64,000 nucleotides of DNA from Cyanobacteria bacterium P01_A01_bin.123 (GCA_039815185.1 JBCBZT010000007.1:96001-160000); one strand, 5' to 3'. Positions 36,537-53,641 are shown, numbered from the stretch's first letter. Notes: a model not told the origin generated them from the sequence alone. Numbers and translations: made by a program.

Positions 36537-39164
36537 GTGGCTCAAGAGTTTCACATTTCAATCACGACCGTTGGGGAAGCGAAATACCTGATTCGCACAG
36601 AGCAGGTTGAACCTGGTGTTCCCTTAGCTGAGACCCAATTAATTTGGGATGTGGAGACTTGGCTAGAACAGGCACAACGGCTAATGCATGGCCCGTTGGC
36701 TAGGCTTTTGCAGGGGTCATCAAAATCATCTGGTCTGCGATCGCCTACGGATTTTTCTGAATCCGATTTGGCTCCTGAATTGCTTGACCCTAGCGTTATG
36801 ACGCTGGGCAAGCAGCTCTACGATGCCTTATTTCAAGACTTGATTCGAGATAGTTGGGTGACAGCCCAAGGTGTCGCTCAAAATCGCCGCCAACTGCTCC
36901 GGTTACGGTTGGGGATTAAAGATCATCGCCTACAACATCTGCCTTGGGAAGTCATGAATAGCGGTGATCGCTCTCCCATCGCCACGGGAACTAACCTCAC
37001 ATTTTGTCGTTATCATCCCAACTTGCTAACCCCATTGCGGGCTGTTACGTCGTCCCAAAAACAGGCTCACCAACTGATTCAAGTTTTGATGGTGGTGGCA
37101 GGGCCTGACGACCAGGAAAGACTGGCTTTGAGTCGCGAAGTCCGGCAGTTGCAGCAAGAACTGGGCCGATCTGATCAGAGTCAGCGTCGACCTAATGCGA
37201 TCGCAAATGCAGTGCCTATCCAGGTCACCCTCTTAGAACAACCGGGCCGCACTGAACTTACCCAAACCCTAGAACAAGGTCACTTTCACGTGTTGCACTA
37301 TGCTGGTCACAGCAACCTGGGTGAAACGGGGGGAGACTTATACCTAGTGAGTCGTCAAACGGGGTTGACTGAGCGTTTGAGCGGTGACGATTTAGCGGGT
37401 TTGTTGGTCAACAACGGAACTCAATTAGCCATTTTCAATTCTTGTCGCAGTGCCTATGCTACGGCTGCAGATATTGCGGGCTGGCGAGAACAGAACTTAG
37501 CCCAGGCTCTAGTGAATCGTGGGGTTCCTGGGGTGATTGCCATGGCTGAGCGTATTCCCGATGAGATTGCAATTACCTTCACCCAATTGTTTTACCGGAA
37601 CCTGAAGGCTGGTTACACCATCGATCTCAGTCTGAACCGCGCCCGACAAGCATTGCTGTCTGTGAAAGGGTCAGATCAGGTGTATTGGGCATTGCCTGTG
37701 TTGTATATGCAGCCTGGGTTTAACGGCTATTTGGGTGAGTCGGATCCAGCGTCAGATTTACTCCATTCACTGCTTGAAGATGATGGGGATGAGTTGTGGT
37801 CAGATGAGGCAGAAATTTCTGACGCGATACCGTCTGTGGTGGTTGCTCGACCGAACCAGTTAGATGATCGTGATCTGCCCTCTTTGGGTGGGTTGGACGA
37901 GGGTGATGATGATTTTTGGGATGATGATGAAGAAATCGATTTAGACGCGATCGCCGATACCCTAGATGCCACTGCCGACGAAGAATATGCCGAAGATAGT
38001 GCCTTTGTTGGCAGCATTATGCAACAGCTAGCCAATCCGGCTACCGCTGCCGCCTTGGCTTCAGCTCCCCCCGGTGACTCGCTACAGAGTGATTCTTTGC
38101 GCAATGAAGCCTTACAGTCGGATAACATCACGTCACGGTCGATTAGCAGTTATGCTCAGCCCACCAGCAGTCCTGATCGAGCGGCTGGTGACCCAGCCAT
38201 GACTGGTAGTCAGGCAACCCTCCAGACGTCAGACTTACCCCGACCCTCCGTTAGTAGGGTGTCTCAACAGTCAACCTTTGTTGAACCTGATTTTTCGACC
38301 CCGCATCCCCGCTCCACCCCAAACTTCACGCGTTTGTTGAGGCGTTTTTCCCTCGGTAACTCGGCCCAGCCCTGGTTATGGCTGGCGTTAGGGATGGTAG
38401 CTGTAGGGTCTGTGGTTGGGGTTAGTCGTCTCAACAGACCGAAGCAAACTGAGCTGTTCCCAGCACCCGTGCAGAGTGGTGGTGGTCTTGCTGAAGCAGT
38501 GCTCGCATTGAAACGTGATGACTTGGTGGCAGCAACCAACACAATAGAATCTTTGTTAGACAGCGATCAGCTATCCATTGCGCAAGAGGCGCTTGATGCT
38601 GCTTCACCCAGGCAGCTTACCAACCCTGAAATTCTCTATCTCCGAGGTCGATTGCAGTGGCAACAGGGGCAAAAAGACAACCTTGATTTTGATCTGAATG
38701 ATGTCTTGCGATCTTGGCAACAGGCTGTCGCAGACACTCGAAAGACCAAGGAAACCTTAACCGCGCGTGTTAACTACAATACCGCTTTGGGATTTGCTTA
38801 CTATGCCCAAGGCGATTTCCCTGCGGCAGTTGACACCTGGAAGGAAGTGATTAGGTTAAACAATGAACGATACCGCCAATTGGCCCCAGACGGATCGGAT
38901 GAGGATTTTGCTGTTCAAGAACTTCCCTTTGATGCCTATGCAGGCTTGGCGATCGCGCTTTACAACATGGCTCAAACAACACCCGATCCGAATCAGTCTG
39001 ACTTTATCAGAGATGCTCGCAAATCTTACTGTCTAGTCGTGACCAGCGATCCAAGTCGATTTGGGACTGCAAGCGGGTTGAGCGGTGACTCAAATTGGCT
39101 ATGGGGGCCAGCGCAGATCAAGGATTGGCAAACGATTGGGCCAAAGCTGGCAAGTTGCCAGTAA
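36537..39164 (+). CDS. hetF: HetF-like CHAT (caspase-like) protease with TM segment and C-terminal TPR-like region
   Basis: N-terminus 'MAQEFHISIT.VG...YLIRTEQV.PGVPLAE' recalls HetF; His/Cys dyad in 'LHYAGH' and 'FNSC'. Confidence 0.82.
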   Translation: MAQEFHISITTVGEAKYLIRTEQVEPGVPLAETQLIWDVETWLEQAQRLMHGPLARLLQGSSKSSGLRSPTDFSESDLAPELLDPSVMTLGKQLYDALFQDLIRDSWVTAQGVAQNRRQLLRLRLGIKDHRLQHLPWEVMNSGDRSPIATGTNLTFCRYHPNLLTPLRAVTSSQKQAHQLIQVLMVVAGPDDQERLALSREVRQLQQELGRSDQSQRRPNAIANAVPIQVTLLEQPGRTELTQTLEQGHFHVLHYAGHSNLGETGGDLYLVSRQTGLTERLSGDDLAGLLVNNGTQLAIFNSCRSAYATAADIAGWREQNLAQALVNRGVPGVIAMAERIPDEIAITFTQLFYRNLKAGYTIDLSLNRARQALLSVKGSDQVYWALPVLYMQPGFNGYLGESDPASDLLHSLLEDDGDELWSDEAEISDAIPSVVVARPNQLDDRDLPSLGGLDEGDDDFWDDDEEIDLDAIADTLDATADEEYAEDSAFVGSIMQQLANPATAAALASAPPGDSLQSDSLRNEALQSDNITSRSISSYAQPTSSPDRAAGDPAMTGSQATLQTSDLPRPSVSRVSQQSTFVEPDFSTPHPRSTPNFTRLLRRFSLGNSAQPWLWLALGMVAVGSVVGVSRLNRPKQTELFPAPVQSGGGLAEAVLALKRDDLVAATNTIESLLDSDQLSIAQEALDAASPRQLTNPEILYLRGRLQWQQGQKDNLDFDLNDVLRSWQQAVADTRKTKETLTARVNYNTALGFAYYAQGDFPAAVDTWKEVIRLNNERYRQLAPDGSDEDFAVQELPFDAYAGLAIALYNMAQTTPDPNQSDFIRDARKSYCLVVTSDPSRFGTASGLSGDSNWLWGPAQIKDWQTIGPKLASCQ

Positions 39165-39170
39165 CCCTGA

Positions 39171-39650
39171 TCAGGACACTTTAACCAGCACTAAATCGCC
39201 GTCAATTTTGGCTTCAAATACGTCAAGGGGTGATTCTGCGGGGCCTGCAGTGACGCTGCCATCAGGGTTAAACTTTGACCCGTGGCAGGGGCAAGCAAAG
39301 ACAGAAGTGCCATCCCACTCGACAGTGCAGCCTTGATGGGTACAGAAGGAATTGACGGCGATTATTGATGCGTTGTCTGTGGGGTCGCGGATGACGGCCA
39401 CTTGCTCTCCCTGAAAGGATTTGTCAGCAACAAATCCCATCTCATCCAATTCCGCGACGGTGCCGACAGCGGCAAATCCGTCTTCACGCGGCGTCGAGTC
39501 AACCTCGGTAGGCTCAGCAGCGGTTTCGTTCTCAGTCTCGCCTTCTGGGGCAGAAGCGGTATCGTTAGGTTGACAGGCCGCGATCGCGACGGGTAACGAA
39601 CTCGCTAATACGCCTAATCCGACCCAGTTGATAAATTCACGTCGTTTCAT
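39171..39650 (-). CDS. small Rieske [2Fe-2S] protein, Tat lipoprotein (PetC3-like)
   Basis: 'MKRREF', 'IAAC', CTHQGC and CPCHGS. Confidence 0.93.
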   Translation of the reverse strand: MKRREFINWVGLGVLASSLPVAIAACQPNDTASAPEGETENETAAEPTEVDSTPREDGFAAVGTVAELDEMGFVADKSFQGEQVAVIRDPTDNASIIAVNSFCTHQGCTVEWDGTSVFACPCHGSKFNPDGSVTAGPAESPLDVFEAKIDGDLVLVKVS

Positions 39651-39663
39651 CGATTTTCAAACC

Positions 39664-41379
39664 CTACAAATTTTCAGCCGGTGCTAAAGTGCCCGGACGC
39701 CGCAGCCAGCCATGATGACGTGCTGCCGCGATCGCCACAAACAAAAGATCCACACCCACTACGCCAGCAATCAGCAGCTCGGATCCGCCTGTGCCGAAGC
39801 CGTAACTGTGCAGCCCTGTACCTAGCACAAAGTTCACCCCATACCAGGCCATGAGCACAGCATTGAAGGCAACCACGCTAGCCACGTTGATGCCAAAATC
39901 GCCAATCCAGCCCACGAGGCGACCATGCAGGGGAGCCAAATAGCACAGTAGGGCAATCAGCGCCCAAGTTTCCTTAGGATCCCAACCCCAGAAGCGTCCC
40001 CAGGAGAAGTGGGCCCAGATGCCGCCGAGAATAATCCCTGCTGTCAGCAATAGCACGCCTACCTGCAACACTCGATAGTTCAGTTGCGACAGGGTTTTGA
40101 TGCGCTGCTTAGCATCGGCGGCAAACAGGTAGTTCCCCAGGGCAACATGACCTAGCCCCAAGGCCAGGGCGAAGCTGGCATAGCTCAGGGCAATCGTGGG
40201 GACGTGGATACTCAACCAGAAGTTATCTCGTAGCACCGGCACCAGTGGGGCAATGCTGGGGTCAAGTACGGCAGGCAGACTATCTGCCAACAATAAACAC
40301 ATGACTGACAAGGGTGCGGCTGCCAGCAGGTAGTAGCGAGCCCGGGAAACGAGTTCAAAAGTAAGCGCGATCGCCGCGATGCCAAACCCAACCCAAACCA
40401 CCGACTCATACATATTGGTAACTGGAGGGCGACCGGCAATCTGCATGCGCAAAAAGAAACCATAGCTTTGCACCCCAATGCCCGCAGTAAATAGGCCAAT
40501 GGCGCTCCAGTAAAGATTCCAGTTACTATCTCGGGCGTTTATCAAGAGGCTAACCAACAAAATCCCAAACGCCAGCCCATAGAGCCACCAGGCCTTAGCA
40601 AAAGGATGGAAATGGTTAAAGTGCACTTCCCGCTGTAGAACAGCATCGGTGGGATAGATTGCGGGACTGAGCTGCTGTAGGCTCGCCTTTAGTTCAGCGG
40701 CAAATGCCCCCACCATTGGTACATGGGTAATGCCACCATTGAGTAGCGTTTGCTGCGTCATGGCAAACTGAGCTATCAGCGGCGCCACAGTTTCTGGCGC
40801 GTAAAGCTGCTGGGCATCATTCAATCCGGCCCATTTGCCCTTGATGTCATCAGGGTGGGGCACGATGGGCAGATTGTTATCGCCAACGGATTGATACAGC
40901 AGGTTAAGGCGATCTTCAATGGTCAGTGCTTCGCGCTCATCGCGGTCGAGCGCTTCGTCGTTGAGCGCCTTTTGATGGGCTTGGCGTACGATCGCGCTCA
41001 AATCCTTATTGGTCATCAGCTCTCGAAACGTGAAATGCTTTCGTTCTAAATCAAGACCGACCGCTGCTTTCAGGGGGCGATAACTGACCAGTACAAAGGG
41101 TTCCTCGTTCCAATTGCGGTTGTTTAGCCACATCCCCAAGAAGGTGCTGAGGTAGTCCTCTTTTTCACCGTCAGCCTGTTTGTAGGTGGTGGCACCGTGA
41201 ATTTTAGCGACGGTTTCTTTGGCCACAGTGTCTAGGGGCTTTTTGCGTCCGTCAAGCTGTACGGCTAGGGTTCGCAATTCCTCCAAACCATCAGGCTGAA
41301 ACTGGCTCAAGGGCATCAGCAATAAGATGCAGCCCAGGCAGAAGCCCACGAAGAATTTAATCAGGTTTATACCTTTCAT
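39664..41379 (-). CDS. ccsA: system II cytochrome c synthase, CcsA-type with N-terminal extension
   Basis: WWD domain 'WAHFSWGRFWGWDPKETW', 'WLSIHV', 'GLHSYG', 'PVTNMYES'. Confidence 0.9.
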   Translation of the reverse strand: MKGINLIKFFVGFCLGCILLLMPLSQFQPDGLEELRTLAVQLDGRKKPLDTVAKETVAKIHGATTYKQADGEKEDYLSTFLGMWLNNRNWNEEPFVLVSYRPLKAAVGLDLERKHFTFRELMTNKDLSAIVRQAHQKALNDEALDRDEREALTIEDRLNLLYQSVGDNNLPIVPHPDDIKGKWAGLNDAQQLYAPETVAPLIAQFAMTQQTLLNGGITHVPMVGAFAAELKASLQQLSPAIYPTDAVLQREVHFNHFHPFAKAWWLYGLAFGILLVSLLINARDSNWNLYWSAIGLFTAGIGVQSYGFFLRMQIAGRPPVTNMYESVVWVGFGIAAIALTFELVSRARYYLLAAAPLSVMCLLLADSLPAVLDPSIAPLVPVLRDNFWLSIHVPTIALSYASFALALGLGHVALGNYLFAADAKQRIKTLSQLNYRVLQVGVLLLTAGIILGGIWAHFSWGRFWGWDPKETWALIALLCYLAPLHGRLVGWIGDFGINVASVVAFNAVLMAWYGVNFVLGTGLHSYGFGTGGSELLIAGVVGVDLLFVAIAAARHHGWLRRPGTLAPAENL

Positions 41380-41420
41380 GGTTAATGGCTAAATCGTCAA
41401 TGGACGGTAGGAATGGATGA

Positions 41421-41498
41421 CTAAACCACATCCGATTTGAAACTTGGAGTTTTAGCTCAAGGAAAAACTATGGATCTGGATGTGGACACGGTTTGAAA
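41421..41498 (+). repeat. dispersed ~75-bp repeat, copy 3
   Basis: CTAAACCACATCCGATTTGAAACTTGGAGTTTTAGCTCAAGGAAAAACTATGGATCT...GGTTTGAAA. Confidence 0.8.
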
Positions 41499-41512
41499 AG
41501 AGAAGACGAGGT

Positions 41513-43324
41513 TTATTTACCAAACACAGCCAAAATCGGAATTGTGGCCGCGTCTTCATCTGTGGAGATTTCAGTTTCAGGGACTTCAACCCCAAGGACT
41601 TCAGCTTCAGGCGATTTTCGATTAGACAATCGTCGATATTTTTTGACTAGTCCAGGCCCATAGAACATCACACCAATGCCCAAGACTATCATCAGCGAAC
41701 CACTCCAAGTCAGCGCCGTTACCCACCAGGGTTCGCGCTTGAGTTGCAGGGTAGATTGCTGCAAATCACCAGGGTTCCAAGACGCTTGGGCCAGCTTCCA
41801 ACCCCGAAACCAAGTCGGATGGTTCATCCAAACAGACCGATGTACGGCGGTGTCAGTTTGCGGATCGAACAGCGTCACGTTGCTCGTCCACATCGCAACG
41901 GACTCACTGCCCTCGTTACGTTCCACAATGAAGTCGTTGAGTTTGACGTAAAAAGGCAGCTGTAGCAGCTTGGGGCTAAAGGCAGTGAAGTAATCCCCCG
42001 AAGCGGTTTCTAAGTGGGTGGGTTCACCCCAGGGGAGCCAAAAATCTTGACCATCGGCTGTTGCAACCTGTAGCGCTGGCGATCCTTCGTTCGCCAGTGT
42101 GCCATCAGCTACGGGAGCCATTGGCACGACCTGTCGCTGTACCTGAGCCCGATCTAACTGCTGAGTGACCGAAATCTGAAAGTCTGCCCAACCGGGCGCG
42201 ACGGGTTGACCTGCCTGCAATTTCCCAGACTTGAAACCTTTAGAAGACCGAGCCGCATAAAAGAGCTGATGGTCAGCAGCAGCAACGATGCGAAAGTAGT
42301 CAGCGTCGTCAATCGGGGGCGCGTTGTAATGAACCGTTAGGGCAATGTCATCCCCGGTGCGCACGGTATCCAACCCAGGCTTGGCAAAAACGAACCAACG
42401 GGCTTGGGAACTTCCCTGAGTCAATGCTAGCTGTACGGCTGGGTTGCGAAACTGGCTAGAAGCTGATGTCGGTTGATTATTAGCCCCTAAGCGGAAATCG
42501 GGCCAGACGTTGACCACTTCGACTGTGGTGCCGTTCTGCATTTGTAAAGATCGGCCCAGCTTTTGGTTCACATCTACGACGGTATCGCCAATCTGCAGGG
42601 TCCCAAAGTCTGCGAAGGAGTCTTGGGGAGGACTGAGTAACTGCTTCAGTTCTGCTGCGTTCTCAGCTTGGACAATTTCTAAATGGGCTGGGCCGATATC
42701 CATTTGGCGATAGCCTGTAGGGGCTATGGCTAACCAGCGGTCTAAGGTTTGCCCCATGCGATCGCTGTGGAGCCTCACCTGCACTGCCAGATTGTCTACC
42801 ATCCCTTCATTGGTGAAGCGGACGGTTTTAATGGCGCGATCGCTATATCCCAGTAAAGACAAGCCAGCAAACGTTTGGGGATACACTGTGCCATTGGGCT
42901 TAATGAACACATCTGTTTGCTGTTGTAATTGATCAGGGGCGACAACTTCCATTAATTCGCCTGCGACTCGGATTTGGTTGTTTGGGCCGCTGTCGGTGCG
43001 TACTAACAACATACCTTCAGTACTGAGGTGGATGACAGCGGCAGAGCCTGCAATGATTACAATCAAACCCCAGTGGGTTAGGGCAAATCCGACCTTGCGG
43101 GGGCCTCGCCAAGGGAAACGACTGAGGGTAGAAATGCCTAAGTTGACGGCCAAGAGAAACATCAACGCACCAAACCAGACGCTCTTATAAATTTCCCTTT
43201 GAACTGTGGCTGAGCCAACTGTCGATTCATAAAATGTGGCTCCAATTAGAATAGCTGCGATCGCAACCAGCAAGGGCACCGCTAGTCTAATAGAACCTAA
43301 AAACCGCACGAAATTAGATGTCAT
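41513..43324 (-). CDS. ResB/CcsB-like cytochrome c biogenesis protein
   Basis: 'FLGSIRLAVPLL', 'IY.S.WF', 'THWG', 'LPF.VKL.DF', 'WMNHP', three N-terminal TMs + one C-terminal TM. Confidence 0.85.
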   Translation of the reverse strand: MTSNFVRFLGSIRLAVPLLVAIAAILIGATFYESTVGSATVQREIYKSVWFGALMFLLAVNLGISTLSRFPWRGPRKVGFALTHWGLIVIIAGSAAVIHLSTEGMLLVRTDSGPNNQIRVAGELMEVVAPDQLQQQTDVFIKPNGTVYPQTFAGLSLLGYSDRAIKTVRFTNEGMVDNLAVQVRLHSDRMGQTLDRWLAIAPTGYRQMDIGPAHLEIVQAENAAELKQLLSPPQDSFADFGTLQIGDTVVDVNQKLGRSLQMQNGTTVEVVNVWPDFRLGANNQPTSASSQFRNPAVQLALTQGSSQARWFVFAKPGLDTVRTGDDIALTVHYNAPPIDDADYFRIVAAADHQLFYAARSSKGFKSGKLQAGQPVAPGWADFQISVTQQLDRAQVQRQVVPMAPVADGTLANEGSPALQVATADGQDFWLPWGEPTHLETASGDYFTAFSPKLLQLPFYVKLNDFIVERNEGSESVAMWTSNVTLFDPQTDTAVHRSVWMNHPTWFRGWKLAQASWNPGDLQQSTLQLKREPWWVTALTWSGSLMIVLGIGVMFYGPGLVKKYRRLSNRKSPEAEVLGVEVPETEISTDEDAATIPILAVFGK

Positions 43325-44018
43325 ATCTCGCCCTCAATTGCGATCAGAATTAGGCCTAAAGTGCATTCAACCAGAATCCCTGGAGATTAAAAGCGCATTT
43401 GTATCGTCGGATTCAAAAAAAACAGCTTTATGCAATAAACGAATAAATTTAATGCTTGATCTGCATTGATTTATCCTGCCAATAAAATAGGCCATAGCTT
43501 AGATCTAAAATAAATTGTCCACAGAGAAAAATAAAATCTGTGCTTTTCGCTACGAATTTTAGTGATTTAAGTCTTTGTTTTATCTATTTGAGTCCGCGAT
43601 CTTATGAGGTCTAAGAACAAAATCTTCCTATGCAAAAACGTCATTGATCTGGTGCGTAAAACGAATTGACAGGTTTGTTTTAGTATTTGGAGCTACAAAA
43701 TAACTTGATTTATCCCCATAGTCTGAACAATGTTTACGGTATCTCGTGTAGTTCAAGTATGTCTTGAAAGTTAGATTGTTCTGAAATCTTGAATCATTTC
43801 CATCCACCCATGACATCAAGATTGTGGATCGTGATTGCAGCTGCTTTTAGGATCTGTGTTCTTTTGATTGACATTGGCGGTTGTACTAAATCGTCTCTGA
43901 CGAATGGCTTTTTCAGGTTAATTGTCTCAATGGAATGGGTTGGAATTTAGTCAGCCCTTGACTACTTAAAGATTGCCTAGACTCTGTGTGTTTATTTGCT
44001 AGGAGCTGTGAAAAAAAC

Positions 44019-45062
44019 ATGACCGCAAATCCTGATGCAACGTCCCAAGAAGTTGGGCTGCAGGTTGAGCTACTGGAAGACAGTTTCGAGCTGGTAAAGC
44101 CTCAAGCTCAGGCATTCTCAGTTAGCTTTTATGAAAACCTGTTTGCCGACTATCCAGCGGCTCAGCCGCTGTTTACAAGCACCAATATGGCTGAGCAAAG
44201 CAATAAGCTGCTGACCTCCCTGGTGTTTGTCGTTGAGAATTTGAAAAGGCCTGAGGCGCTCACTGAAGCGCTGAAAGGCTTGGGCGCGCGTCACGTCAAG
44301 TACGGCGCGCTTCCTGAGCACTACCCTCTAGTTGGCAATACCCTACTCAAAACCTTTGAGCAGTATCTGGGTGCAGCTTGGACGTCTGATACGAAGCAAG
44401 CTTGGGTAGATGCTTACAGCGTGATTACAGAAGTGATGCTGGATGGCGCTGATTATTCTCAAGACGACGTACAGCTAGGTGCTGACGCCGCGGATAATTT
44501 GGATGCGGTGGATGAAGCCACTGGACTCAAAATTGCTTTGCTAGAGCAGAGCTTTGAAAAGGTAAAACCCCACGCGAACGATTTCGTCACCAGTTTTTAC
44601 GGCAATTTGTTTACTGATTATCCAGCGGCCAAGCCCCTGTTTGCCCACACCAATATGAAGGAGCAGGGTAATAAGCTGCTGATGTCTTTGGTGTTTGTGA
44701 TTGAAAATTTGCGTAAACCTGGTGAGTTGACCGGGGCTTTAAAAGGTTTAGGGGCGCGTCACGTCAAGTATGGGGCCCTGCCTGATCACTATCCTCTGGT
44801 GGGTAACTCTCTGCTCAAAACCTTTGAACAATATTTGGGTGCAGATTGGACTGCCAGTACCAAGCAAGCCTGGGTTGATGCCTACGGTTTGATTACAGAA
44901 GTCATGTTGGAAGGGGCTGACTATTCCCCTGAGTCGGTGCAGCTTGAGTCTGCCACATCGGCTGGTGTGGAGAAGCCTGAGGGCAGCATCGGTACCGGGA
45001 CTGCGGCAGGCATTATTGGGGGCAGTGCTCTCCTTTTGGTGCTGCTAATTCTGCTGGTGTAA
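44019..45062 (+). CDS. tandem di-globin with C-terminal membrane anchor
   Basis: Two near-duplicate globin domains ('FY.NLF..YPAA.PLF', 'EQ', 'LGARHVKYGALP.HY', 'AW..AY'); hydrophobic tail. Confidence 0.92.
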   Translation: MTANPDATSQEVGLQVELLEDSFELVKPQAQAFSVSFYENLFADYPAAQPLFTSTNMAEQSNKLLTSLVFVVENLKRPEALTEALKGLGARHVKYGALPEHYPLVGNTLLKTFEQYLGAAWTSDTKQAWVDAYSVITEVMLDGADYSQDDVQLGADAADNLDAVDEATGLKIALLEQSFEKVKPHANDFVTSFYGNLFTDYPAAKPLFAHTNMKEQGNKLLMSLVFVIENLRKPGELTGALKGLGARHVKYGALPDHYPLVGNSLLKTFEQYLGADWTASTKQAWVDAYGLITEVMLEGADYSPESVQLESATSAGVEKPEGSIGTGTAAGIIGGSALLLVLLILLV

Positions 45063-45092
45063 ACGCTGAGACGAACTGAGGATATAGAGTCG

Positions 45093-45740
45093 ATGGCGTT
45101 GAATGGAGGTCGTTCAGTCAATTGGCGTTCGTTTATCAGCCTGAAAACGGCGATCGCGATCGCTTGTATTGTCCTAATTGGCTGGTTTGCAGCAGCTTTT
45201 GCGATGGATAATAAGCAGGTGTTTCTACCCGGGGAAACCTCGGTGGGGCACTATCTGTTTGAAACCTCCTGCAATTCCTGTCACGAGGGCTTCAAGCCAG
45301 TCTCAAATGATACATGTATGCGCTGTCATGAGGCTGAGTTGGTCGAGGATGAACACGGGACTCAGAAGTTTTTGGATCCCCGCTGGGCTGAAGACTTGGC
45401 CAAGCTCGAGGTGCTGACCTGTACGACTTGCCACAACGAGCATGTCCACATGTTCGGTCGGGGCGTCAACCTCCAGCCTGACATTTGTATGACCTGTCAT
45501 GAGGGCATCATTACCGGTGACCTCAAAAGTCATGACGGCTTTGCTGCCGATGGCTGCTGGACTGCCGGATGTCATAACTATCACGATCATCGTTCTATTT
45601 CCACAGGTTTCTTGCGTCAAAACCTTGATCAGCCGCCAATGCTACCCGTACAGCAACTCCCAAATCGGGTTGTGTTGAGCGAATTGGATGCCGCACCTAA
45701 CCCAGATCTTGCCCAGGAATTCTTGGGAGGTAGCTTGTGA
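45093..45740 (+). CDS. membrane-anchored multiheme cytochrome c (4 CXXCH + 1 CX4CH)
   Basis: CNSCH, CMRCH, CTTCH, CMTCH, CWTAGCH; N-terminal TM/signal. Confidence 0.9.
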   Translation: MALNGGRSVNWRSFISLKTAIAIACIVLIGWFAAAFAMDNKQVFLPGETSVGHYLFETSCNSCHEGFKPVSNDTCMRCHEAELVEDEHGTQKFLDPRWAEDLAKLEVLTCTTCHNEHVHMFGRGVNLQPDICMTCHEGIITGDLKSHDGFAADGCWTAGCHNYHDHRSISTGFLRQNLDQPPMLPVQQLPNRVVLSELDAAPNPDLAQEFLGGSL

Positions 45741-46546
45741 AGTTCTTGCTCCCATGGATGTTGGCTATTGTGATGTTATTTGGCTGGGCAGCTCCTGCTT
45801 GGAGCGATGGTGTTGATCAGGCCAAGCTGGATGAAAGTACTCAATTATGGCGGAGCAGTGCCCATGCACTAAATGACGTGAACTGTTCTAGTTGTCACCA
45901 GAATACCGAGACCCAAACATTTGTAGCCCGTCCCAACCACGAAAGTTGCCAGTCTTGCCACGAGCAATCGGTGGATACCTTTTTATTGGGTAAACATGGC
46001 ATTCGCCTACTAGAAGGTGAACCGCCATTGACGCCATCGTTAGCGCGATTACCCATGCAGCCTGATGCCCATGATTTGCAAATGACCTGTGCGACCTGCC
46101 ACGATGCCCATTCTGTGAATACGGTGCAGGCAGCTGTAGAGTCTTGCCTGACCTGCCACGCTGACACCCACTCCTTAAACTACGAAAATTCTAGCCACGC
46201 TCAACTGTTTGCCGATGATCGCAACTTACCTCGGCCATCAAGCAGTTCGGTGAGCTGTGCTACCTGTCACTTGCCGCGCCATGAAGTGAAGCGCGGAGAG
46301 ATCATGACCGCCTTAGTGAATCACAACAATACCTATACGCTGCTGCCGCGCGATCGCATGGTGCAGGAAGTGTGTATGAACTGCCACGGCGTTGAGTACA
46401 GCTACAACAGTATTTTTGACGACGACTTGGTGGAGTCCAACTTTGATAAACCCCCCACCTTATCCCTAGAGACCTTTGATCTGGTGCGCGACCTAGAGAA
46501 TCGCCGCGGCGGTCAGCCTGATGCGGCCCCTGACGACAGTGAATAA
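45737..46546 (+). CDS. exported hexaheme cytochrome c
   Basis: Signal peptide '...PAWS'; CSSCH, CQSCH, CATCH, CLTCH, CATCH, CMNCH; GTGA overlap with the upstream gene. Confidence 0.92.
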   Translation: MKFLLPWMLAIVMLFGWAAPAWSDGVDQAKLDESTQLWRSSAHALNDVNCSSCHQNTETQTFVARPNHESCQSCHEQSVDTFLLGKHGIRLLEGEPPLTPSLARLPMQPDAHDLQMTCATCHDAHSVNTVQAAVESCLTCHADTHSLNYENSSHAQLFADDRNLPRPSSSSVSCATCHLPRHEVKRGEIMTALVNHNNTYTLLPRDRMVQEVCMNCHGVEYSYNSIFDDDLVESNFDKPPTLSLETFDLVRDLENRRGGQPDAAPDDSE

Positions 46547-46669
46547 GGCTAGGGCAAGGCCTTCGTCAAACCTCCCGTTCGGTTTACGAACATGGCTTAT
46601 GCCATCTGATCACAACAGTACACGTGTAAACGCAATGCAGTTCACGCTTTCAAGAAGGAGACCCTGTCA

Positions 46670-47323
46670 ATGACACTTGTAAATCGATGGATGAGTACCC
46701 TCCGCACCCGCACTGTGGCATTTATTGCCATTGTGTTGGCGATCGCGGTTACGGCTGTTTCTTGCAGCGGTGGTGGTACCACAGCCCAAGCACCTGCGGG
46801 CGTTGCTCCCGACTTAGTTGCTGACTATATTCACACTGTGCTTGCAGCTGATCGCACGGCTTACACCAAGCACGTGGTTAACCGCTCCCAAACATTAGAA
46901 GGTAAAGCCAAAGAAGACGGCGTCTTGGCAGTTGAGGCTACCGAAGGCTGGCAGCAAACGGATGGTATTCCCCTCCCAGCTCAGATGTTCCGTTTGGGGT
47001 CTGAGATTGCCAATGAAGCAGGCTACTTTACCTACAACCTGATTTCTCCCTGGTACATCAATGACAACCATGCCCCCAAGGGTGAATTTGAAGAAAGTGC
47101 GATTCAAACCATGATCGATTCTGGAGAACCGGTCAAAGATTACCAGGAAGTTAACGGGCAGCAGTTTTTCTCAGCCATGTACCCTGACAGGGCCGTAGCT
47201 GAAGCTTGTGTCACCTGCCACAACGAGCACCCCATTCACCTAGAGCGCTATCCCGACAAACTGTTTGTCATGGATGAAGTGATGGGCGGTGTTGTGATTA
47301 ACATCCCCCTTGAGGGAGCGTAA
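46670..47323 (+). CDS. Tll0287-like (DUF3365) monoheme c lipoprotein
   Basis: Lipobox 'AVSC', 'R..YT..VV', 'PLPAQMFR', 'ACVTCHN', 'GGVVI.IP'. Confidence 0.85.
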   Translation: MTLVNRWMSTLRTRTVAFIAIVLAIAVTAVSCSGGGTTAQAPAGVAPDLVADYIHTVLAADRTAYTKHVVNRSQTLEGKAKEDGVLAVEATEGWQQTDGIPLPAQMFRLGSEIANEAGYFTYNLISPWYINDNHAPKGEFEESAIQTMIDSGEPVKDYQEVNGQQFFSAMYPDRAVAEACVTCHNEHPIHLERYPDKLFVMDEVMGGVVINIPLEGA

Positions 47324-47354
47324 GCGCTAGTCATCCAGCGCTGGCTGATGGGGT

Positions 47355-47381
47355 AATAGGGGTGATGCGATCGCCCCTATT
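47355..47381 (+). terminator. hairpin after the DUF3365 gene
   Basis: AATAGGGGTGAT-gcg-ATCGCCCCTATT; weak U-tract. Confidence 0.5.
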
Positions 47382-47634
47382 GCTTGAGTAGAAGTCCAGC
47401 AGTCTTTATTCAATTGGTTGCTACACGGGGTCATATCAGCATTGGGATGACCGACGGCTTGTAGAAGCGTTGTTAAAAATACGACATCTCTGCTGCCAGC
47501 CTTGTTGTATAAAGTTAAGTAAAGGGCTGTTCTGCAACCAGATCTGATTTGAAACCTTTGGTTTCTGGGTTCAGCGAAAGCGATGAACCCCAGATACTGT
47601 AAGAGATTTAGTCTTCTAGCCTTGATACCAATTT

Positions 47635-48390
47635 TTGATTCTCCCTAGGGTAATGAGCCAATTTAGCCACCAACATCACGCGCTCGACTCCCAAGACTCA
47701 ATCAGACCCAGTCTTGATGCCGACACTCCAGCGATGCCGATGCCAAATATGGAAGCAATCGCTCCTCAGCGACGGTCGCCCCTGAAACCCCGTGGGGTTC
47801 AGCCTGGTTTCAAAGTCCTGATTGGCTTGACGCTGCTAACGGCTTTACTGCTGTTACCGTTTGCGTTTAGCCAGGGTTATCTCGACTGGTTACGGGCTCA
47901 GTCTTTTGATCTACATCGCTTTTTGCGAGGGGAGTGGTACAAGCAGATCACAGGCTTTACGGCTTTAACCTTGGTCTTATTGGAAGTGATGCTGACGGTG
48001 CGTAAGCGCAGTCGTAGCTGGATCGGCCGGATCAGAATTCCAGGGTCTATGCAACTTTGGCGCAGCATCCACATCTTTGTCGGCGTGGGATTGGTTGGGT
48101 TGGTCTTGATCCACACGATGGGGGCCAACGGTCTCAATTTTAACGCCGTTTTTCTTTGGGTGTTCTTTGCTACGTCCCTCACTGCGCTGGTTGGGGTTGT
48201 GGCTGAAACCGGCATTTTAGAGTCTACCCGCAACTATTTTGGCAAAATACCCGGCAGCGACAAAATTTTGACTAAAGGCCCTTTGATCCGTGGACTCAGG
48301 GCAGTGTGGCTCGTCAGCCATATTTTCTTTGTCTGTGTGTTTGCTGTCATGCTGGTGTTTCACATTATCCTGGCTTACTACTTCCAGTGA
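47635..48390 (+). CDS. integral membrane protein, putative di-heme b (ferric-reductase-like TM)
   Basis: About 5 TM; His in 'WRSIHIFVG', 'LIHT', 'WLVSHIF', 'FHII'; start uncertain. Confidence 0.65.
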   Translation: MILPRVMSQFSHQHHALDSQDSIRPSLDADTPAMPMPNMEAIAPQRRSPLKPRGVQPGFKVLIGLTLLTALLLLPFAFSQGYLDWLRAQSFDLHRFLRGEWYKQITGFTALTLVLLEVMLTVRKRSRSWIGRIRIPGSMQLWRSIHIFVGVGLVGLVLIHTMGANGLNFNAVFLWVFFATSLTALVGVVAETGILESTRNYFGKIPGSDKILTKGPLIRGLRAVWLVSHIFFVCVFAVMLVFHIILAYYFQ

Positions 48391-48473
48391 TTACTGCCAC
48401 TGAGGATTTTCGTTGTGGCTTGAGTGGATGACAGCTTTACCTAAGTTAATCATGGTCAAATCAGGGGAAACAT

Positions 48474-48977
48474 ATGACTGCGGATCGGTTGACTGAAAAC
48501 TTGGTGAAGCGCCAAAAGAGTCTGATTGCGATCGCAGTAGTGGTTATTTTCGCGATCGCGGCTGTTTTCCTCACCCGGCCTCAGACCTCTACCACTGGTC
48601 TTTCGCCGGTGTCTGGCTTAATCACGCTCAAAGCTTCAGCCCAGTCGGCCATCAGCTATGACTTAGCCATCGCGAATGGCAATCCCACACTGGTTGAGTT
48701 TTATGCCGACTGGTGTACCACCTGTCAGGCTTTGGCCCCTGCCTTACAAGCGGTTCATCGCCAGTTTGGTTCAGATCTCAACTTGGTCATGCTCAATATT
48801 GATGATCCCCAGTGGCGATCGCAGATTCAGCAGTTTCGGGTAAGCGGAGTGCCCCACCTCGTTTTACTCAACCCTGACCAAGCGATCGTCGATAGTTTTA
48901 TTGGTGACGTCCCTCGCCAAGTCCTGGCCAGCCGTATTGAGGAGATCGTGGCGGATGCTACACCCGTCTCCCTTTAA
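48474..48977 (+). CDS. membrane-anchored thioredoxin (TxlA/ResA-like)
   Basis: N-terminal TM, 'VEFYADWCTTC', 'SGVPH'. Confidence 0.88.
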   Translation: MTADRLTENLVKRQKSLIAIAVVVIFAIAAVFLTRPQTSTTGLSPVSGLITLKASAQSAISYDLAIANGNPTLVEFYADWCTTCQALAPALQAVHRQFGSDLNLVMLNIDDPQWRSQIQQFRVSGVPHLVLLNPDQAIVDSFIGDVPRQVLASRIEEIVADATPVSL

Positions 48978-49035
48978 GTCAGCCCTTTCAAATTGGTTCA
49001 GCTAATGCCGTGTAACCCCTTTAGGAGCTGTATTC

Positions 49036-49254
49036 ATGGCTATTTTAAATCGGTTTCTCCGACTGTTGAAGCTGCTAGAACAAGCGGCTGATTTAACTGA
49101 ATTTTTAACCTCGCCCACAGGCATTGCCCTCAGCCTTTGTTTATTGAGCTATCAAGCATTTTTATTAGTGGGTTGTGACGCTCCATCGGCTGCTATTTTG
49201 GCCAGTGTTACAGTTTTAACCCTGCACTGCGCCTTCAATCACCCTGAGCGTTAG
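49036..49254 (+). CDS. small membrane hypothetical protein
   Basis: AGGAG RBS, two hydrophobic segments. Confidence 0.55.
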   Translation: MAILNRFLRLLKLLEQAADLTEFLTSPTGIALSLCLLSYQAFLLVGCDAPSAAILASVTVLTLHCAFNHPER

Positions 49255-49265
49255 AGGCACTAACT

Positions 49266-50189
49266 TCACGATATATTGAGTGCGCCGTTTCGCCGAAGCC
49301 ACTGCTTTTGCTCACGAGATAGACCAGTGGTGTCGGTGAATAAAGCCCCTTCTACCCGGCAATGGTCAAAACAGGCACCGTTGAGCTGAGCGTTTTCTAG
49401 ATTAGCCTCACGCAGGTCAGCACCGCTGAAATTAACGTCGCTGAGATTGGCGTACTCCAGGGTGGCATTGTAGAGTGAGGCTCCCTGTAAATCAGCTTCT
49501 ACCAGCACTGCATGCCAAAAATCAGCCCAGTCTAACTGGGTCTGTCGCAGGGTTGTTCCCGTTAGGTCAGCTTGCTCAAATTTAGCGCTGAGTGCATTGG
49601 CCTCCGACAGGTTAGCCCCCACTAAAATTGCCCCGGTTAAGTCAGCCTGAGTTAAATCAGCAGCAACAAAAGCAGTACCTGAGAGAGTCGCTTGCTGCCA
49701 CTGCGACTGACCCAACTGTGCGCCTTCAAAACTCGATTGGCTAAAGTTAGTCCCGGTCAATTGTGTCGCGACGAAACTGGCATATTTGAAGCGAGATTGA
49801 GGCCCACTGGCAGTACGGCAATCGGCTCGATCTAGGCGGGCATAGGAGCCATCGATATGGTCTAGGCAGGCCCCATAAAGTTGAGCGCCAGCAGCCTGAA
49901 CCCGCTGAAAATTCACTGCTGCTAAATTGGCCTGGGTTAAGACAGCGTGGTTGAGATCAGCTGCCTCTAAGCAACTCCCAGATAAATCTGCGAGAGTCAG
50001 TGTTGCATAGGACAAGTTAACGCCACGACAGGACGACCAGTTTAAGCGCGTGCGTCTCAAATAAGCTTCTGGGAAATCTCCCTGATCCAGGCAGGCTCCA
50101 CTTAAATCTATGCCGCTCAGTTCAGCCTTGCCTAAAGACTGGCCTGCTTGTACTCGAGCCAAAACGTCAGAAATAGTGAGTTGAGCCAT
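49266..50189 (-). CDS. pentapeptide repeat protein
   Basis: A(D/N)LXX repeats throughout. Confidence 0.92.
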   Translation of the reverse strand: MAQLTISDVLARVQAGQSLGKAELSGIDLSGACLDQGDFPEAYLRRTRLNWSSCRGVNLSYATLTLADLSGSCLEAADLNHAVLTQANLAAVNFQRVQAAGAQLYGACLDHIDGSYARLDRADCRTASGPQSRFKYASFVATQLTGTNFSQSSFEGAQLGQSQWQQATLSGTAFVAADLTQADLTGAILVGANLSEANALSAKFEQADLTGTTLRQTQLDWADFWHAVLVEADLQGASLYNATLEYANLSDVNFSGADLREANLENAQLNGACFDHCRVEGALFTDTTGLSREQKQWLRRNGALNIS

Positions 50190-50421
50190 AGGACGACTTG
50201 ATCAATGTGGATACCATCATAGATTCTTTCTGTATCTAAAAATACAGAATAAACCCTGATTTCCCCAAAGATTTTCGATTTCTTTGGAATTCATTCATTA
50301 ATCTAAGCGGCAATGGGGAAGAACTGGGGAAGCCAACGGCCATCCCAAAAGCCATTCTGTATATGGGCGACCCTCCATCTTTTGGTGCCTTATTCCAGGC
50401 AGCAGATGTCATGCCACTACT

Positions 50422-50437
50422 TGTGACCTGCGTCACA
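50422..50437. promoter_or_regulatory. perfect CRP box
   Basis: TGTGA-CCTGCG-TCACA in a divergent intergenic region. Confidence 0.75.
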
Positions 50438-50557
50438 GAATAGTCTGATATGGGTTACTAAATCTTGCTCGTACAATCACGCAGGCTGGGTTGTGGTGTC
50501 ACGGGAAGTTGGCTGATTACTGGCGATACTGTATTTAATCGCACTAAACGCTTTGCC

Positions 50558-52750: not shown

Positions 52751-53641
52751 TTATTCGCTGTACCAGAGAATATCCGCGATCGCGCCTTCATTGCCCTCAA
52801 CGACAACTGGAGCCGGATTGAGCAACACGATTTGCTGGGTTATCCCTTCTCCTAATCGTCGGCCTACTCGGTCAGGAATACCGTAGCCGTAAACTACATG
52901 TCCTTGTCCTGCCAGGACAACAACCTGAGTATCTGGATGGGTTTGTCTAAATTCGGCAATGCCCATGGCCATCGTTTCATCCCACACCACTTGGGCGGCA
53001 AAGAAGTTGTCAAAGTTAAAATTTCCATGACTGCCGTGGGCGCCAAAAGCAGCTTTGACATAGTTTTGGTAGTCGCGGTTGCTGGTGTCAATGTCAGTGA
53101 TTGGCGGAATGTATTGCAAATCTTCACCTGCCAAGCTGTCTAGCCCTTCACGGGCAACTTTACGGGTCACTTCGGCAGGCGCATTGAGAGCAAGGACGGG
53201 AATTTGGTGGGTTTGAGCAAACCGTAAAATTGGCGCGTAATGCTCCCAGGGGAAACCCCACCGTGTTTCATACTCGCTTTGCTCAATCAGGTCAGCTTCA
53301 CTAATTTCTCCAGAGAGGTAGCGATCGAGCACGGGTTGGAAAGGACGTTGAAACATCTCCATACCAATCGCGAGGTTGGGATTTTCCTGGTGAAGGGCTG
53401 TAATAATGGCCAACTGGGCAGCGTGATCGTCAGTACTATCATGGCGTTCACCCAAGTACATCACATCCGCTGCCACCAAAGCCTCAAAATCCTCAACCTG
53501 TTGAGGAGACAGGCTGTGGGGTGAACTGTCTAAAGCCGTCGCGCCTTGGTCAGCATAGGAGCACCCCACAGCTGAAAATATTAGCAAGCTGCTGCTGAGT
53601 ACCGTTAAGCCTAGATTTAACCACCGCGATCGCTGTTCCAT
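52751..53641 (-). CDS. ChaN-family (heme-binding-like) lipoprotein
   Basis: 'YLGERHD...H..QL', 'GMEMF', 'AQVVWDETMA', 'AGQGHV.YG.GIP'. Confidence 0.88.
   Translation of the reverse strand: MEQRSRWLNLGLTVLSSSLLIFSAVGCSYADQGATALDSSPHSLSPQQVEDFEALVAADVMYLGERHDSTDDHAAQLAIITALHQENPNLAIGMEMFQRPFQPVLDRYLSGEISEADLIEQSEYETRWGFPWEHYAPILRFAQTHQIPVLALNAPAEVTRKVAREGLDSLAGEDLQYIPPITDIDTSNRDYQNYVKAAFGAHGSHGNFNFDNFFAAQVVWDETMAMGIAEFRQTHPDTQVVVLAGQGHVVYGYGIPDRVGRRLGEGITQQIVLLNPAPVVVEGNEGAIADILWYSE

Follow-up and report, generated by a model that had tools for sequence, protein, structure and literature searches.

Known systems and the present locus

Multiheme cytochrome chains are generally seen as belonging to anaerobic respiration, and the cytochromes that cyanobacteria use as monoheme. 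In Bradyrhizobium, the assimilatory nitrate reductase makes nitric oxide (NO), which is countered by a co-expressed single-domain globin and an NAD(P)H flavoprotein, Bjgb and Flp, encoded in narK-bjgb-flp-nasC under NasS/NasT control (PMC4724949, accessible parts). Here we describe a redox module whose likely job has this pair as a known analogue, at positions 39171..48977 of a 64,000-nucleotide stretch from Cyanobacteria bacterium P01_A01_bin.123 (GCA_039815185.1 JBCBZT010000007.1:96001-160000; the whole stretch is called the window). Its left arm encodes a Rieske lipoprotein, a CcsA-like and a ResB-like protein, and its divergent right arm a tandem globin, a pentaheme and a hexaheme cytochrome c, a Tll0287-like Cache-heme lipoprotein, a di-heme b cytochrome and a thioredoxin. 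Like the Bradyrhizobium genes, the module places a single-domain globin in what is very probably a nitrate-assimilation regulon. However, the accessible parts of that paper describe Bjgb-Flp as a two-protein cytoplasmic pair for NO detoxification, whereas the module also has a di-heme b cytochrome, 11 c hemes, a Cache heme and its own maturase and, in its cyanobacterial form, has no flavoprotein, two membrane-anchored globins and probable NtcA/NtcB control. A co-encoded cytoplasmic NAD(P)H flavoprotein is absent from the window's module, and in Gammaproteobacteria it was found only as a fusion with cytochrome b.

Individual parts resemble other families. The hexaheme aligns in sequence and in fold with hydroxylamine oxidoreductase (HAO), octaheme nitrite reductase and NrfA and keeps the Asp/His pair, but it differs from them: neither CxxCH nor CxxCK is present for heme 4, the C-terminus is much shorter, a pentaheme domain is added on the N-terminal side, and regulation is assimilatory instead of respiratory. 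Conduits of the NOX, ferric reductase, MsrQ and cytochrome b561 kinds have two His pairs 14 residues apart and a basic cytoplasmic loop. The b cytochrome shares these features, and in Gammaproteobacteria also a fused NAD(P)H-flavin input; unlike them, it stays below all the Pfam cut-offs shown, its input is NirB-type FAD/BFD or globin, and its output is multiheme. The Cache-heme lipoprotein resembles Tll0287 and the stand-alone sCache_heme proteins in being an exported, stand-alone PF11845 protein with CxxCH (bioRxiv 10.64898/2026.02.01.703092), but lacks the distal Cys of the Tll0287 type and carries an invariant set of Met, Arg and His; the accessible parts of that preprint do not mention the present operon. 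The Uet undecaheme cluster of Tenderiales also has eleven hemes and a dedicated CcsAB, but its genes, as listed in the accessible parts of the source (bioRxiv 10.1101/2022.05.06.490989), include those for a porin, triheme c7 proteins and NHL proteins and no adjacent globin, Cache heme or cytochrome b. Identity with this cluster was set aside on gene content, which was compared in place of sequences.

The architecture of the module thus departs in a defining feature from HAO/NrfA, Bjgb-Flp, Tll0287-type proteins and porin-cytochrome conduits alike, and as architecture it appears to be new. The open-access literature (subscription papers and bioRxiv supplements lie outside it) gave no description of the module, and the locus tags AM1_4406-4409, Pse7367_266x and XM38_0245xx returned 0 papers in open-access full text. 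The module is real, is shared by two phyla and is apparently undescribed. It amounts to a 12-c-heme trans-membrane chain in the nitrate-assimilation regulon of two phyla, with unrelated regulators and in apparently oxic cells, and it bears on the roles of stand-alone Cache-heme proteins and on NO recovery or emission by nitrate-assimilating microbes.

The module very probably belongs to the nitrate-assimilation regulon

Regulation is the strongest functional clue to the module. The initial annotation had recognised two divergent arms around an AT-rich middle of ~690 bp, and all nine open reading frames (ORFs) were verified with their coordinates and orientations; NtcA/NtcB control, found in the present analysis, it had missed. 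The inter-arm spacer, 43325-43985, measures 661 bp up to the GTG start of the right arm, or 694 bp if this arm starts at the likelier ATG, 44019, and the GC content of the bin covering it (43001-44000) is 0.40.

NtcB boosts the nirA operon upon the switch from ammonium to nitrate, and its box, ATGC-N7-GCAT-N7-ATGC-N7-GCAT, is separated from the NtcA site by a 15-bp spacer (NtcA-NtcB cryo-electron microscopy preprint, bioRxiv 2022.10.10.511513, accessible parts). In front of the right arm, a perfect NtcA site, GTA-N8-TAC (43683-43696, plus strand), is followed 22 nt downstream by a -10 hexamer (43719-43724) and preceded, with a 16-nt spacer, by an NtcB box (43630..43666, plus strand, 3 mismatches in 16). 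The left arm has an NtcB box (43430..43466, minus strand, 1 mismatch in 16) lying 15 nt from an NtcA-like site (43401..43414, minus strand, 1 mismatch), behind which no good -10 hexamer was found.

The same arrangement recurs in relatives. A perfect NtcA site stands 5' of the globin gene in 18 of 33 loci (7.2 expected), and a relaxed one at a single aligned position in 20/20 relatives, whose leaders are otherwise unalignable. From this leader alignment a second footprint, ATGC-N7-GCAT-N7-ATGC, emerged, which was later matched to the published NtcB box. The combination of NtcB box and NtcA core, spaced as published for the nirA promoter, was present in 28 of the 32 promoters of the right arm (0.12 expected from shuffles), including those of Acaryochloris, Pleurocapsa, Coleofasciculus and Roseofilum, and under a looser NtcA rule in 14 of 28 resB promoters (0.12 expected), although these counts are not independent trials because the genomes are related.

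Across the present genome, a scan for the right-arm type of promoter returned three sites, namely the nirA-nrtP-narB promoter (0 mismatches), an NrtP-type major facilitator superfamily (MFS) gene on contig C92 (1) and the module (2); the module's own match is partly by construction, but the nirA and C92 matches are not. The full 37-bp NtcB box with at most 2 mismatches occurs at four genomic sites: two upstream of nirA, one nearby on contig C67 and one at 43430. A zero-mismatch NtcB pattern proved too strict to be informative (it hit 9 of 25 genomes, both carriers of the module and others), and the NtcA-type promoters escaped a sigma70 scan. Judged by these promoters, membership of the module in the NtcA/NtcB regulon can be proposed with high confidence. 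As they give the condition of induction (nitrite or nitrate in the absence of ammonium), the function lends itself to direct tests in culture, and the cultured carriers include Acaryochloris marina MBIC11017 (AM1_4406-4409).

Two more loci carry such elements. The second NrtP/NarK-type MFS gene (G000:C92:170025-171889, L071) has an NtcB plus NtcA promoter of its own and is predicted to be the third member of the NtcB regulon. Near the nirA operon, at G000:C67:27179-32394, an NtcB-like box (2 mismatches) lies 5' of an ATP-binding cassette (ABC) transporter cluster with a substrate-binding protein resembling substrates of twin-arginine translocation (Tat); the cluster is divergent from a 2-oxoglutarate-Fe(II)-oxygenase-like ORF, and these labels come from reading the translations only.

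Conservation in cyanobacteria and Gammaproteobacteria

In GTDB genomes 46 loci were detected, of which 45 are labelled cyanobacterial or unclassified and one is from Sulfuricaulis. Among the 45, a gene was counted only where the locus is long enough to show it. On this basis the pentaheme, globin and b-type membrane protein genes were each present in 41/41, the Cache-heme gene in 44/44 and the thioredoxin gene in 33/38, while the 19 full-length loci hold resB (19), ccsA (19), Rieske (16) and ChaN-like (11) genes, with the resB-ccsA arm in several orientations. Thus, the core of globin, pentaheme, hexaheme, Cache heme and di-heme b protein is intact in each cyanobacterial locus long enough, and the co-occurrence in other genomes on which the initial proposal depended was borne out.

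Within the family of the present genome the module occurs in 14 of 24 genomes, and among cyanobacteria at large in 3 of 400 besides the present one. In Gammaproteobacteria, pentaheme and hexaheme form one 11-heme protein (164 representatives at 50% clustering, E <= 1e-30), which was found in 23 of 400 other genomes of that class. The system had been put forward as a cyanobacterial one; it is not specific to cyanobacteria, being more frequent among the sampled Gammaproteobacteria; its initial appraisal as uncharacterised agrees with the literature searched. In Sulfuricaulis the order is nasT, globin, a fusion of FAD/BFD flavoprotein and membrane protein, the joined penta- and hexaheme cytochrome (451 residues) and Cache heme, after which come two nrtA-like genes, nrtB, nrtC, nirB and nirD. 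Altogether 21 gammaproteobacterial loci were examined (L043 and 20 of the 23 hits; some end at contig borders), with the flavoprotein-cytochrome b fusion in 20, the Cache heme in 19, a monoheme cytochrome in 8 and a globin of the single-domain kind in 13 or of the truncated kind in 4, and among nitrate genes a nasT-like one in 10 and nrtA/nrtB in 8.

Sigma54-like sites were present in 9 of 19 gammaproteobacterial leaders (0.76 expected), and a hairpin-loop motif in 11 of 19 (0.125 expected). This motif, which we take to be a NasT/ANTAR site, often overlaps a terminator-like hairpin, even where nasT is not adjacent. Antitermination by NasT at leader hairpins is documented (PMC5424462), although the accessible passages do not give the motif itself. 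From context and motif, gammaproteobacterial control appears to be of the NtrC/NasT kind, by regulators unrelated to NtcA and NtcB.

Regulation, context and interchangeable globins together point to nitrogen oxides during nitrate assimilation. The reading we favour, though we hold its chances to be only about even, is that the module is a nitrogen-oxide-handling arm of nitrate assimilation that works on both sides of the membrane: the globin would act as NO dioxygenase on the inner side, and a heme site on the outer side would carry out reduction.

Expression in Acaryochloris marina

The A. marina gene coordinates match locus L027. In the accessible parts of a published RNA-seq study whose cultures vary O2 only (PMC5295598), reads in control, microoxic and hyperoxic culture were 109/42/215 for the globin AM1_4406 and 416/70/1567 for the Cache-heme AM1_4409, and glnN tracks these module genes (251/67/532). 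The data argue against microoxic induction and fit control by nitrogen status or O2. The initial annotation had suggested microoxic respiration or sulfur chemistry in mats, and the named hosts are indeed largely marine, saline, mat or biofilm cyanobacteria; membership in the Tll0287 family would also suit it. Since these two module genes go down in microoxia, the microoxic setting is not supported. Sulfur chemistry finds no support either, as the Cache-heme protein lacks the distal Cys that Tll0287 has, and the promoters are of the nitrate-assimilation type. This reading now seems highly improbable.

A short transcript of the AM1_4405 region (L027:7863-8057), immediately 3' of the module's NtcA promoter, gave 10,120/1,755/8,134 reads in the same three cultures, ~90-fold over the globin gene and among the most abundant in the cell. 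It is possibly an attenuated leader or a small RNA; its counterpart in the window, the leader at ~43730-44018, showed no sequence conservation. Between the Cache-heme gene and that of the b cytochrome, a gap of 311 bp (47324-47634) contains a HIP1 site flanked by a G/C-rich inverted repeat, which could be the cause of the higher Cache-heme transcript levels.

The 11-heme cytochrome looks like an electron wire

The membrane-anchored pentaheme cytochrome (45093..45740, plus strand) equals the N-terminal half of the 11-heme protein and is followed by the hexaheme cytochrome with its HAO-family fold (45737..46546, plus strand). They are the only ORFs with at least three CxxCH in the 8.09-Mb genome, and with five, six and, in the Tll0287-like protein, one motif, the c-heme total is 12, just as first estimated, one of them being Cx4CH. 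This motif (C155/C160/H161), which joins four CxxCH in the pentaheme, is kept in 41/41 homologues; as the mark of a catalytic heme it was dropped, for 12 of the listed long representatives carry 11 plain CxxCH.

The fused cytochrome was modelled confidently (predicted local distance difference test, pLDDT, 92.9). The top four fold matches of its C-terminal domain are HAO-family chains with middling Z scores of 7.0-7.8, the best being 4n4j (Z 7.8, root-mean-square deviation (rmsd) 3.9, 193 aligned), and the hexaheme sequence profile matches 6h5l at E 2.4e-11; Foldseek, run on the cytochrome and b-cytochrome models, found nothing with an E value of 0.001 or better. Alignments to 6h5l and 4qo5 put the six hexaheme hemes on HAO hemes 2, 3, 5, 6, 7 and 8, in what we take to be the HAO numbering, and show a Cys-free segment at the position of the catalytic heme-4 motif; CxxCK occurs in none of 68 representatives of at least 380 residues. 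Six non-motif His and the Asp/His pair D143/H145, which aligns with the same pair in 6h5l, are kept in 120/120 hexahemes, and in the 11-heme protein eleven non-motif His are conserved, each in 49-56 of 56. With eleven hemes and eleven conserved spare His, the simplest reading is an all-bis-His arrangement, so that by its sequence the protein looks like an electron wire. There is still room for one open heme site, the His of the HAO pair being among the eleven and a Met nearly invariant (53/56).

The HAO-family fold with its conserved pair could also serve electrons flowing inward. A reduced compound, most plausibly hydroxylamine, would then be oxidised outside at the Cache heme or the HAO-like domain, and the electrons, running in through the wire and the b hemes, would re-reduce the globin, which would turn the NO formed into nitrate; the module would be a self-powered hydroxylamine/NO route to assimilable nitrogen. 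The cyanobacterial form, which has no NADH domain, and the globin, which is membrane-anchored and once fused in that domain's place, would suit such a route. However, the motif of the catalytic heme is missing, the 11-for-11 ligand count calls for the conserved His as well, the NADH-binding flavoprotein in 20 of 21 gammaproteobacterial loci points outward, and NtcB and NasT sense nitrate/nitrite, not hydroxylamine. Inward flow is thus considered unlikely.

The Cache-heme lipoprotein as candidate end of the chain

The stand-alone Cache-heme c lipoprotein (46670..47323, plus strand, PF11845) shows an invariant Met, three Arg and one His after CxxCH in a 30-sequence alignment from two phyla, with 37-42% identity across phyla, 32 invariant columns and no distal Cys. 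The window's protein has only three Cys, those of the lipobox and of CxxCH, so that the His/Cys ligation of Tll0287 is impossible; its match to 5B82 is distant (E 0.53). From its sequence, it is a candidate for the substrate-binding end of the chain. In the accessible parts of the sCache_heme preprint (bioRxiv 10.64898/2026.02.01.703092), family members bind NO, which counts for the nitrogen-oxide reading, and a stand-alone member shows redox-like behaviour at +123 mV.

The predicted complex of 11-heme and Cache-heme proteins scored 0.44 against 0.01 for the best control, with run agreement of at least 87% and partner pLDDT of at least 85. Of the pairs with solved structures 116 of 157 attained the mark used, as did 2 of 215 mismatched ones, and scores up to 0.60 are mostly wrong unless the pair is likely beforehand; the model thus lends the pairing weak support. 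One record, P0394, has a shortened cytochrome fused to a Cache domain, possibly an artefact.

Records P0391 and P0393 are proteins of about 400 residues with two Cache-heme units of this subfamily in tandem. An ESM Atlas cluster contains a 372-residue fusion family of paired CxxCH and Tll0287, commonest in Nitrospinota (nitrite oxidisers), and nitrite metabolism may thereby have a further pairing of multiheme and Cache-heme parts.

The di-heme b cytochrome and the globins

What had been noted as a 4-His membrane protein is a five-helix b cytochrome, predicted to hold two hemes (47635..48390, plus strand; His146/160 and His229/243). Its four His are invariant in 62/62 aligned sequences and form two pairs, 14 apart, on two helices of a four-helix bundle with an invariant basic loop (helical model, pLDDT 89). 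The cytoplasmic N-terminus is joined in Gammaproteobacteria to NirB-type NADH/FAD/[2Fe-2S] domains, corresponding to positions 1-469 of the NirB model, the NADH input half; one divergent locus has an FNR-like domain there, and one record (P0367) a globin. A divergent form at L064:10573-13095, beside a Ser/Thr kinase gene, has the b cytochrome fused to cyclic-nucleotide-binding, BFD and FNR-like domains; nirB was not found in its genome at the cut-off.

All Pfam matches of the b cytochrome are weak and below cut-off (prokaryotic cytochrome b561 in 23/62, ferric reductase in 5/62). The latter, with the di-heme b domain and the multiheme wire, would suit extracellular electron transfer or the reductive uptake of metal (iron), induced together with nitrate assimilation because of its high iron demand, and a ChaN-like neighbour is present in 11 of the 19 full-length loci. 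But no outer-membrane beta-barrel or porin gene is found among the window's module genes, and one of the porin family, as clustered, in just 2 of 21 gammaproteobacterial loci (the screen covered the window and these loci); moreover, the constant globin would be unexplained and the promoters are of the nitrogen type (Fur boxes were not searched for). We regard this explanation as very unlikely.

In the fold search, the b cytochrome ties among helical bundles that include the superoxide oxidase CybB (Z 9.8, rmsd 3.2, 130 aligned). This would fit an electron valve or capacitor, in which surplus reductant is stored, dumped on O2, superoxide or a terminal oxidase, or buffered for the globin, with no reduction of nitrogen oxides outside; all hemes look six-coordinate, 8 of the 21 loci from Gammaproteobacteria continue with a class I monoheme cytochrome, and expression goes up in hyperoxia. 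On the other hand, nitrate assimilation is already an electron sink, a nitrate-specific activator would be odd for a general valve, and the Cache pocket is unusually conserved across phyla, which makes the valve quite unlikely.

The first right-arm gene (43986..45062, plus strand, Pfam Globin x2) encodes tandem single-domain, flavohemoglobin-type globins with a C-terminal membrane anchor (helix 340-358). Their best PDB matches are single-domain globins and flavohemoglobins, and the distal pockets contain Tyr49/Gln71 and Tyr205/Gln227, presumably the B10/E7 residues. Single-domain and truncated globin families include NO dioxygenases, and this membrane-anchored tandem globin is predicted to be one. 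No NO synthase was found in the present genome.

A second, single globin gene stands directly 3' of the b-cytochrome gene in 12 of the 45 loci (L003, L004, L010, L014-L016, L018, L020, L023, L032, L045 and L046), the present window not being among them. In L056 and L057 a [2Fe-2S]/FAD/NAD oxidoreductase gene after the truncated globin is a candidate for a dedicated globin reductase.

A proposed role in handling nitrogen oxides

The nitrogen-oxide reading starts from what the sequences hold: gene content, NtcA plus NtcB sites, sigma54/NasT-type leaders, the nas context, a putative di-heme b protein, and 11 hemes with 11 spare His. The module would be expressed when ammonium is scarce and nitrate or nitrite present. 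Inside, the globin would use O2 and one electron to convert NO, a by-product of nitrate/nitrite reduction or a product of neighbouring cells, into assimilable nitrate. Electrons from a cytoplasmic reductant would pass through two b hemes and the 11-heme wire to the Cache-heme lipoprotein, which would reduce nitrite, NO or a similar species on the outer side. In Gammaproteobacteria the electrons would come from NADH, via the fused NirB-type flavoprotein, and in cyanobacteria ferredoxin or plastoquinol are candidate donors; that loss of the flavoprotein coincides with gain of the Rieske lipoprotein hints, speculatively, at plastoquinol. ResB, CcsA and the thioredoxin would mature the 12 c hemes.

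For this reading speak the Bjgb-Flp precedent in the nasC operon of Bradyrhizobium (PMC4724949, accessible parts), the N-terminal joining of a globin to the b cytochrome in P0367, expression that climbs with O2 and tracks glnN in A. marina, and the frequency of nirB, which 21 of 24 genomes with the module possess, compared with 26 of 80 controls (25/79 minus the unpublished genome G441).

Several points weigh on the other side. The NasT-type motif was picked out by eye in the very leaders in which it was counted and recurs in only 3 of 9 nrtA leaders. Genome size and kinship confound the nirB comparison, as 24 of 47 controls of at least 2.3 Mb have the gene by hand count, and 3 of the 24 module genomes lack it at the cut-off. 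In A. marina, the accessible differential-expression table contains two module genes and not nirA ("nitrite reductase", 0 hits); with nirA and most module genes outside this table, co-regulation with nirA is not shown, and the microoxic culture was bubbled with N2, which may shift the carbon/nitrogen balance. The tested stand-alone Cache-heme protein binds NO weakly (bioRxiv 10.64898/2026.02.01.703092, accessible parts). No set of extracellular catalytic residues was identified, and the HAO catalytic heme motif is missing. As the cyanobacterial form has no NADH domain, its sequence does not settle which way the electrons run; and as globin plus flavoprotein suffice for NO removal, the precedent leaves the outer chain unexplained.

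A bolder form of the nitrogen-oxide reading, which we find doubtful, is that the NADH-input half of NirB was rewired through the membrane to an 11-heme wire ending on a catalytic Cache heme, docked at the place of the HAO catalytic heme; nitrite, NO or hydroxylamine would be converted outside, and the globin would trap NO as nitrate. If true, extracytoplasmic nitrogen-oxide capture would be a nitrogen source common to marine Gammaproteobacteria and cyanobacteria, and the Cache domain would have its first enzymatic role.

The maturation arm and neighbouring genes

The left arm comprises, all on the minus strand, genes for a small, accessory Tat-type Rieske lipoprotein (39171..39650; RR signal, lipobox Cys26), a long CcsA/ResC cytochrome c synthase (39664..41379; PF01578, TIGR03144 below cut-off, WWD motif at residue 460) and a ResB/CcsB-like maturation protein (41513..43324; PF05140). 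The Rieske Cys/His ligands and Cys26 are kept in 21/21 homologues; a paralogue, 43% identical, lies on contig C41 of the same genome, and we label the module protein PetC3-like. A separate ccsA-like gene lies on contig C43. As the ccsA, Rieske and thioredoxin paralogues elsewhere in the genome are more distant, the left arm is taken to be a dedicated maturation set. The right arm ends with a membrane-anchored CxxC thioredoxin (48474..48977, plus strand), probably an apocytochrome thiol reductase and more simply seen as a maturation factor of the ResA/HCF164 type than as a chain member. In this respect the redox chain of the initial annotation needs amending; as a conserved, self-maturing, trans-membrane chain, probably for nitrogen-oxide chemistry, it was upheld. 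Its family labels agree with Pfam (Rieske, Cytochrom_C_asm, ResB, Globin x2, Tll0287-like, Thioredoxin).

HIP1 sites had been read as a sign of long residence. The 9.8-kb module has 13 against ~11 expected at the genome average, so that the region is ordinary, host-like DNA, and a recent horizontal insertion was rejected on GC content and HIP1 density. A plasmid comparison gave no match, and an Rfam scan of 39000-50500 nothing credible. A pentapeptide-repeat gene adjoins the module (49266-50189), and such a gene lies within 8 of the 19 full loci; the link is uncertain because the family is common. Farther on, beyond the module, a ChaN-like heme-binding lipoprotein, a frequent neighbour, is encoded on the minus strand at 52751..53641 (PF04187) by a gene present in a single copy in the genome.

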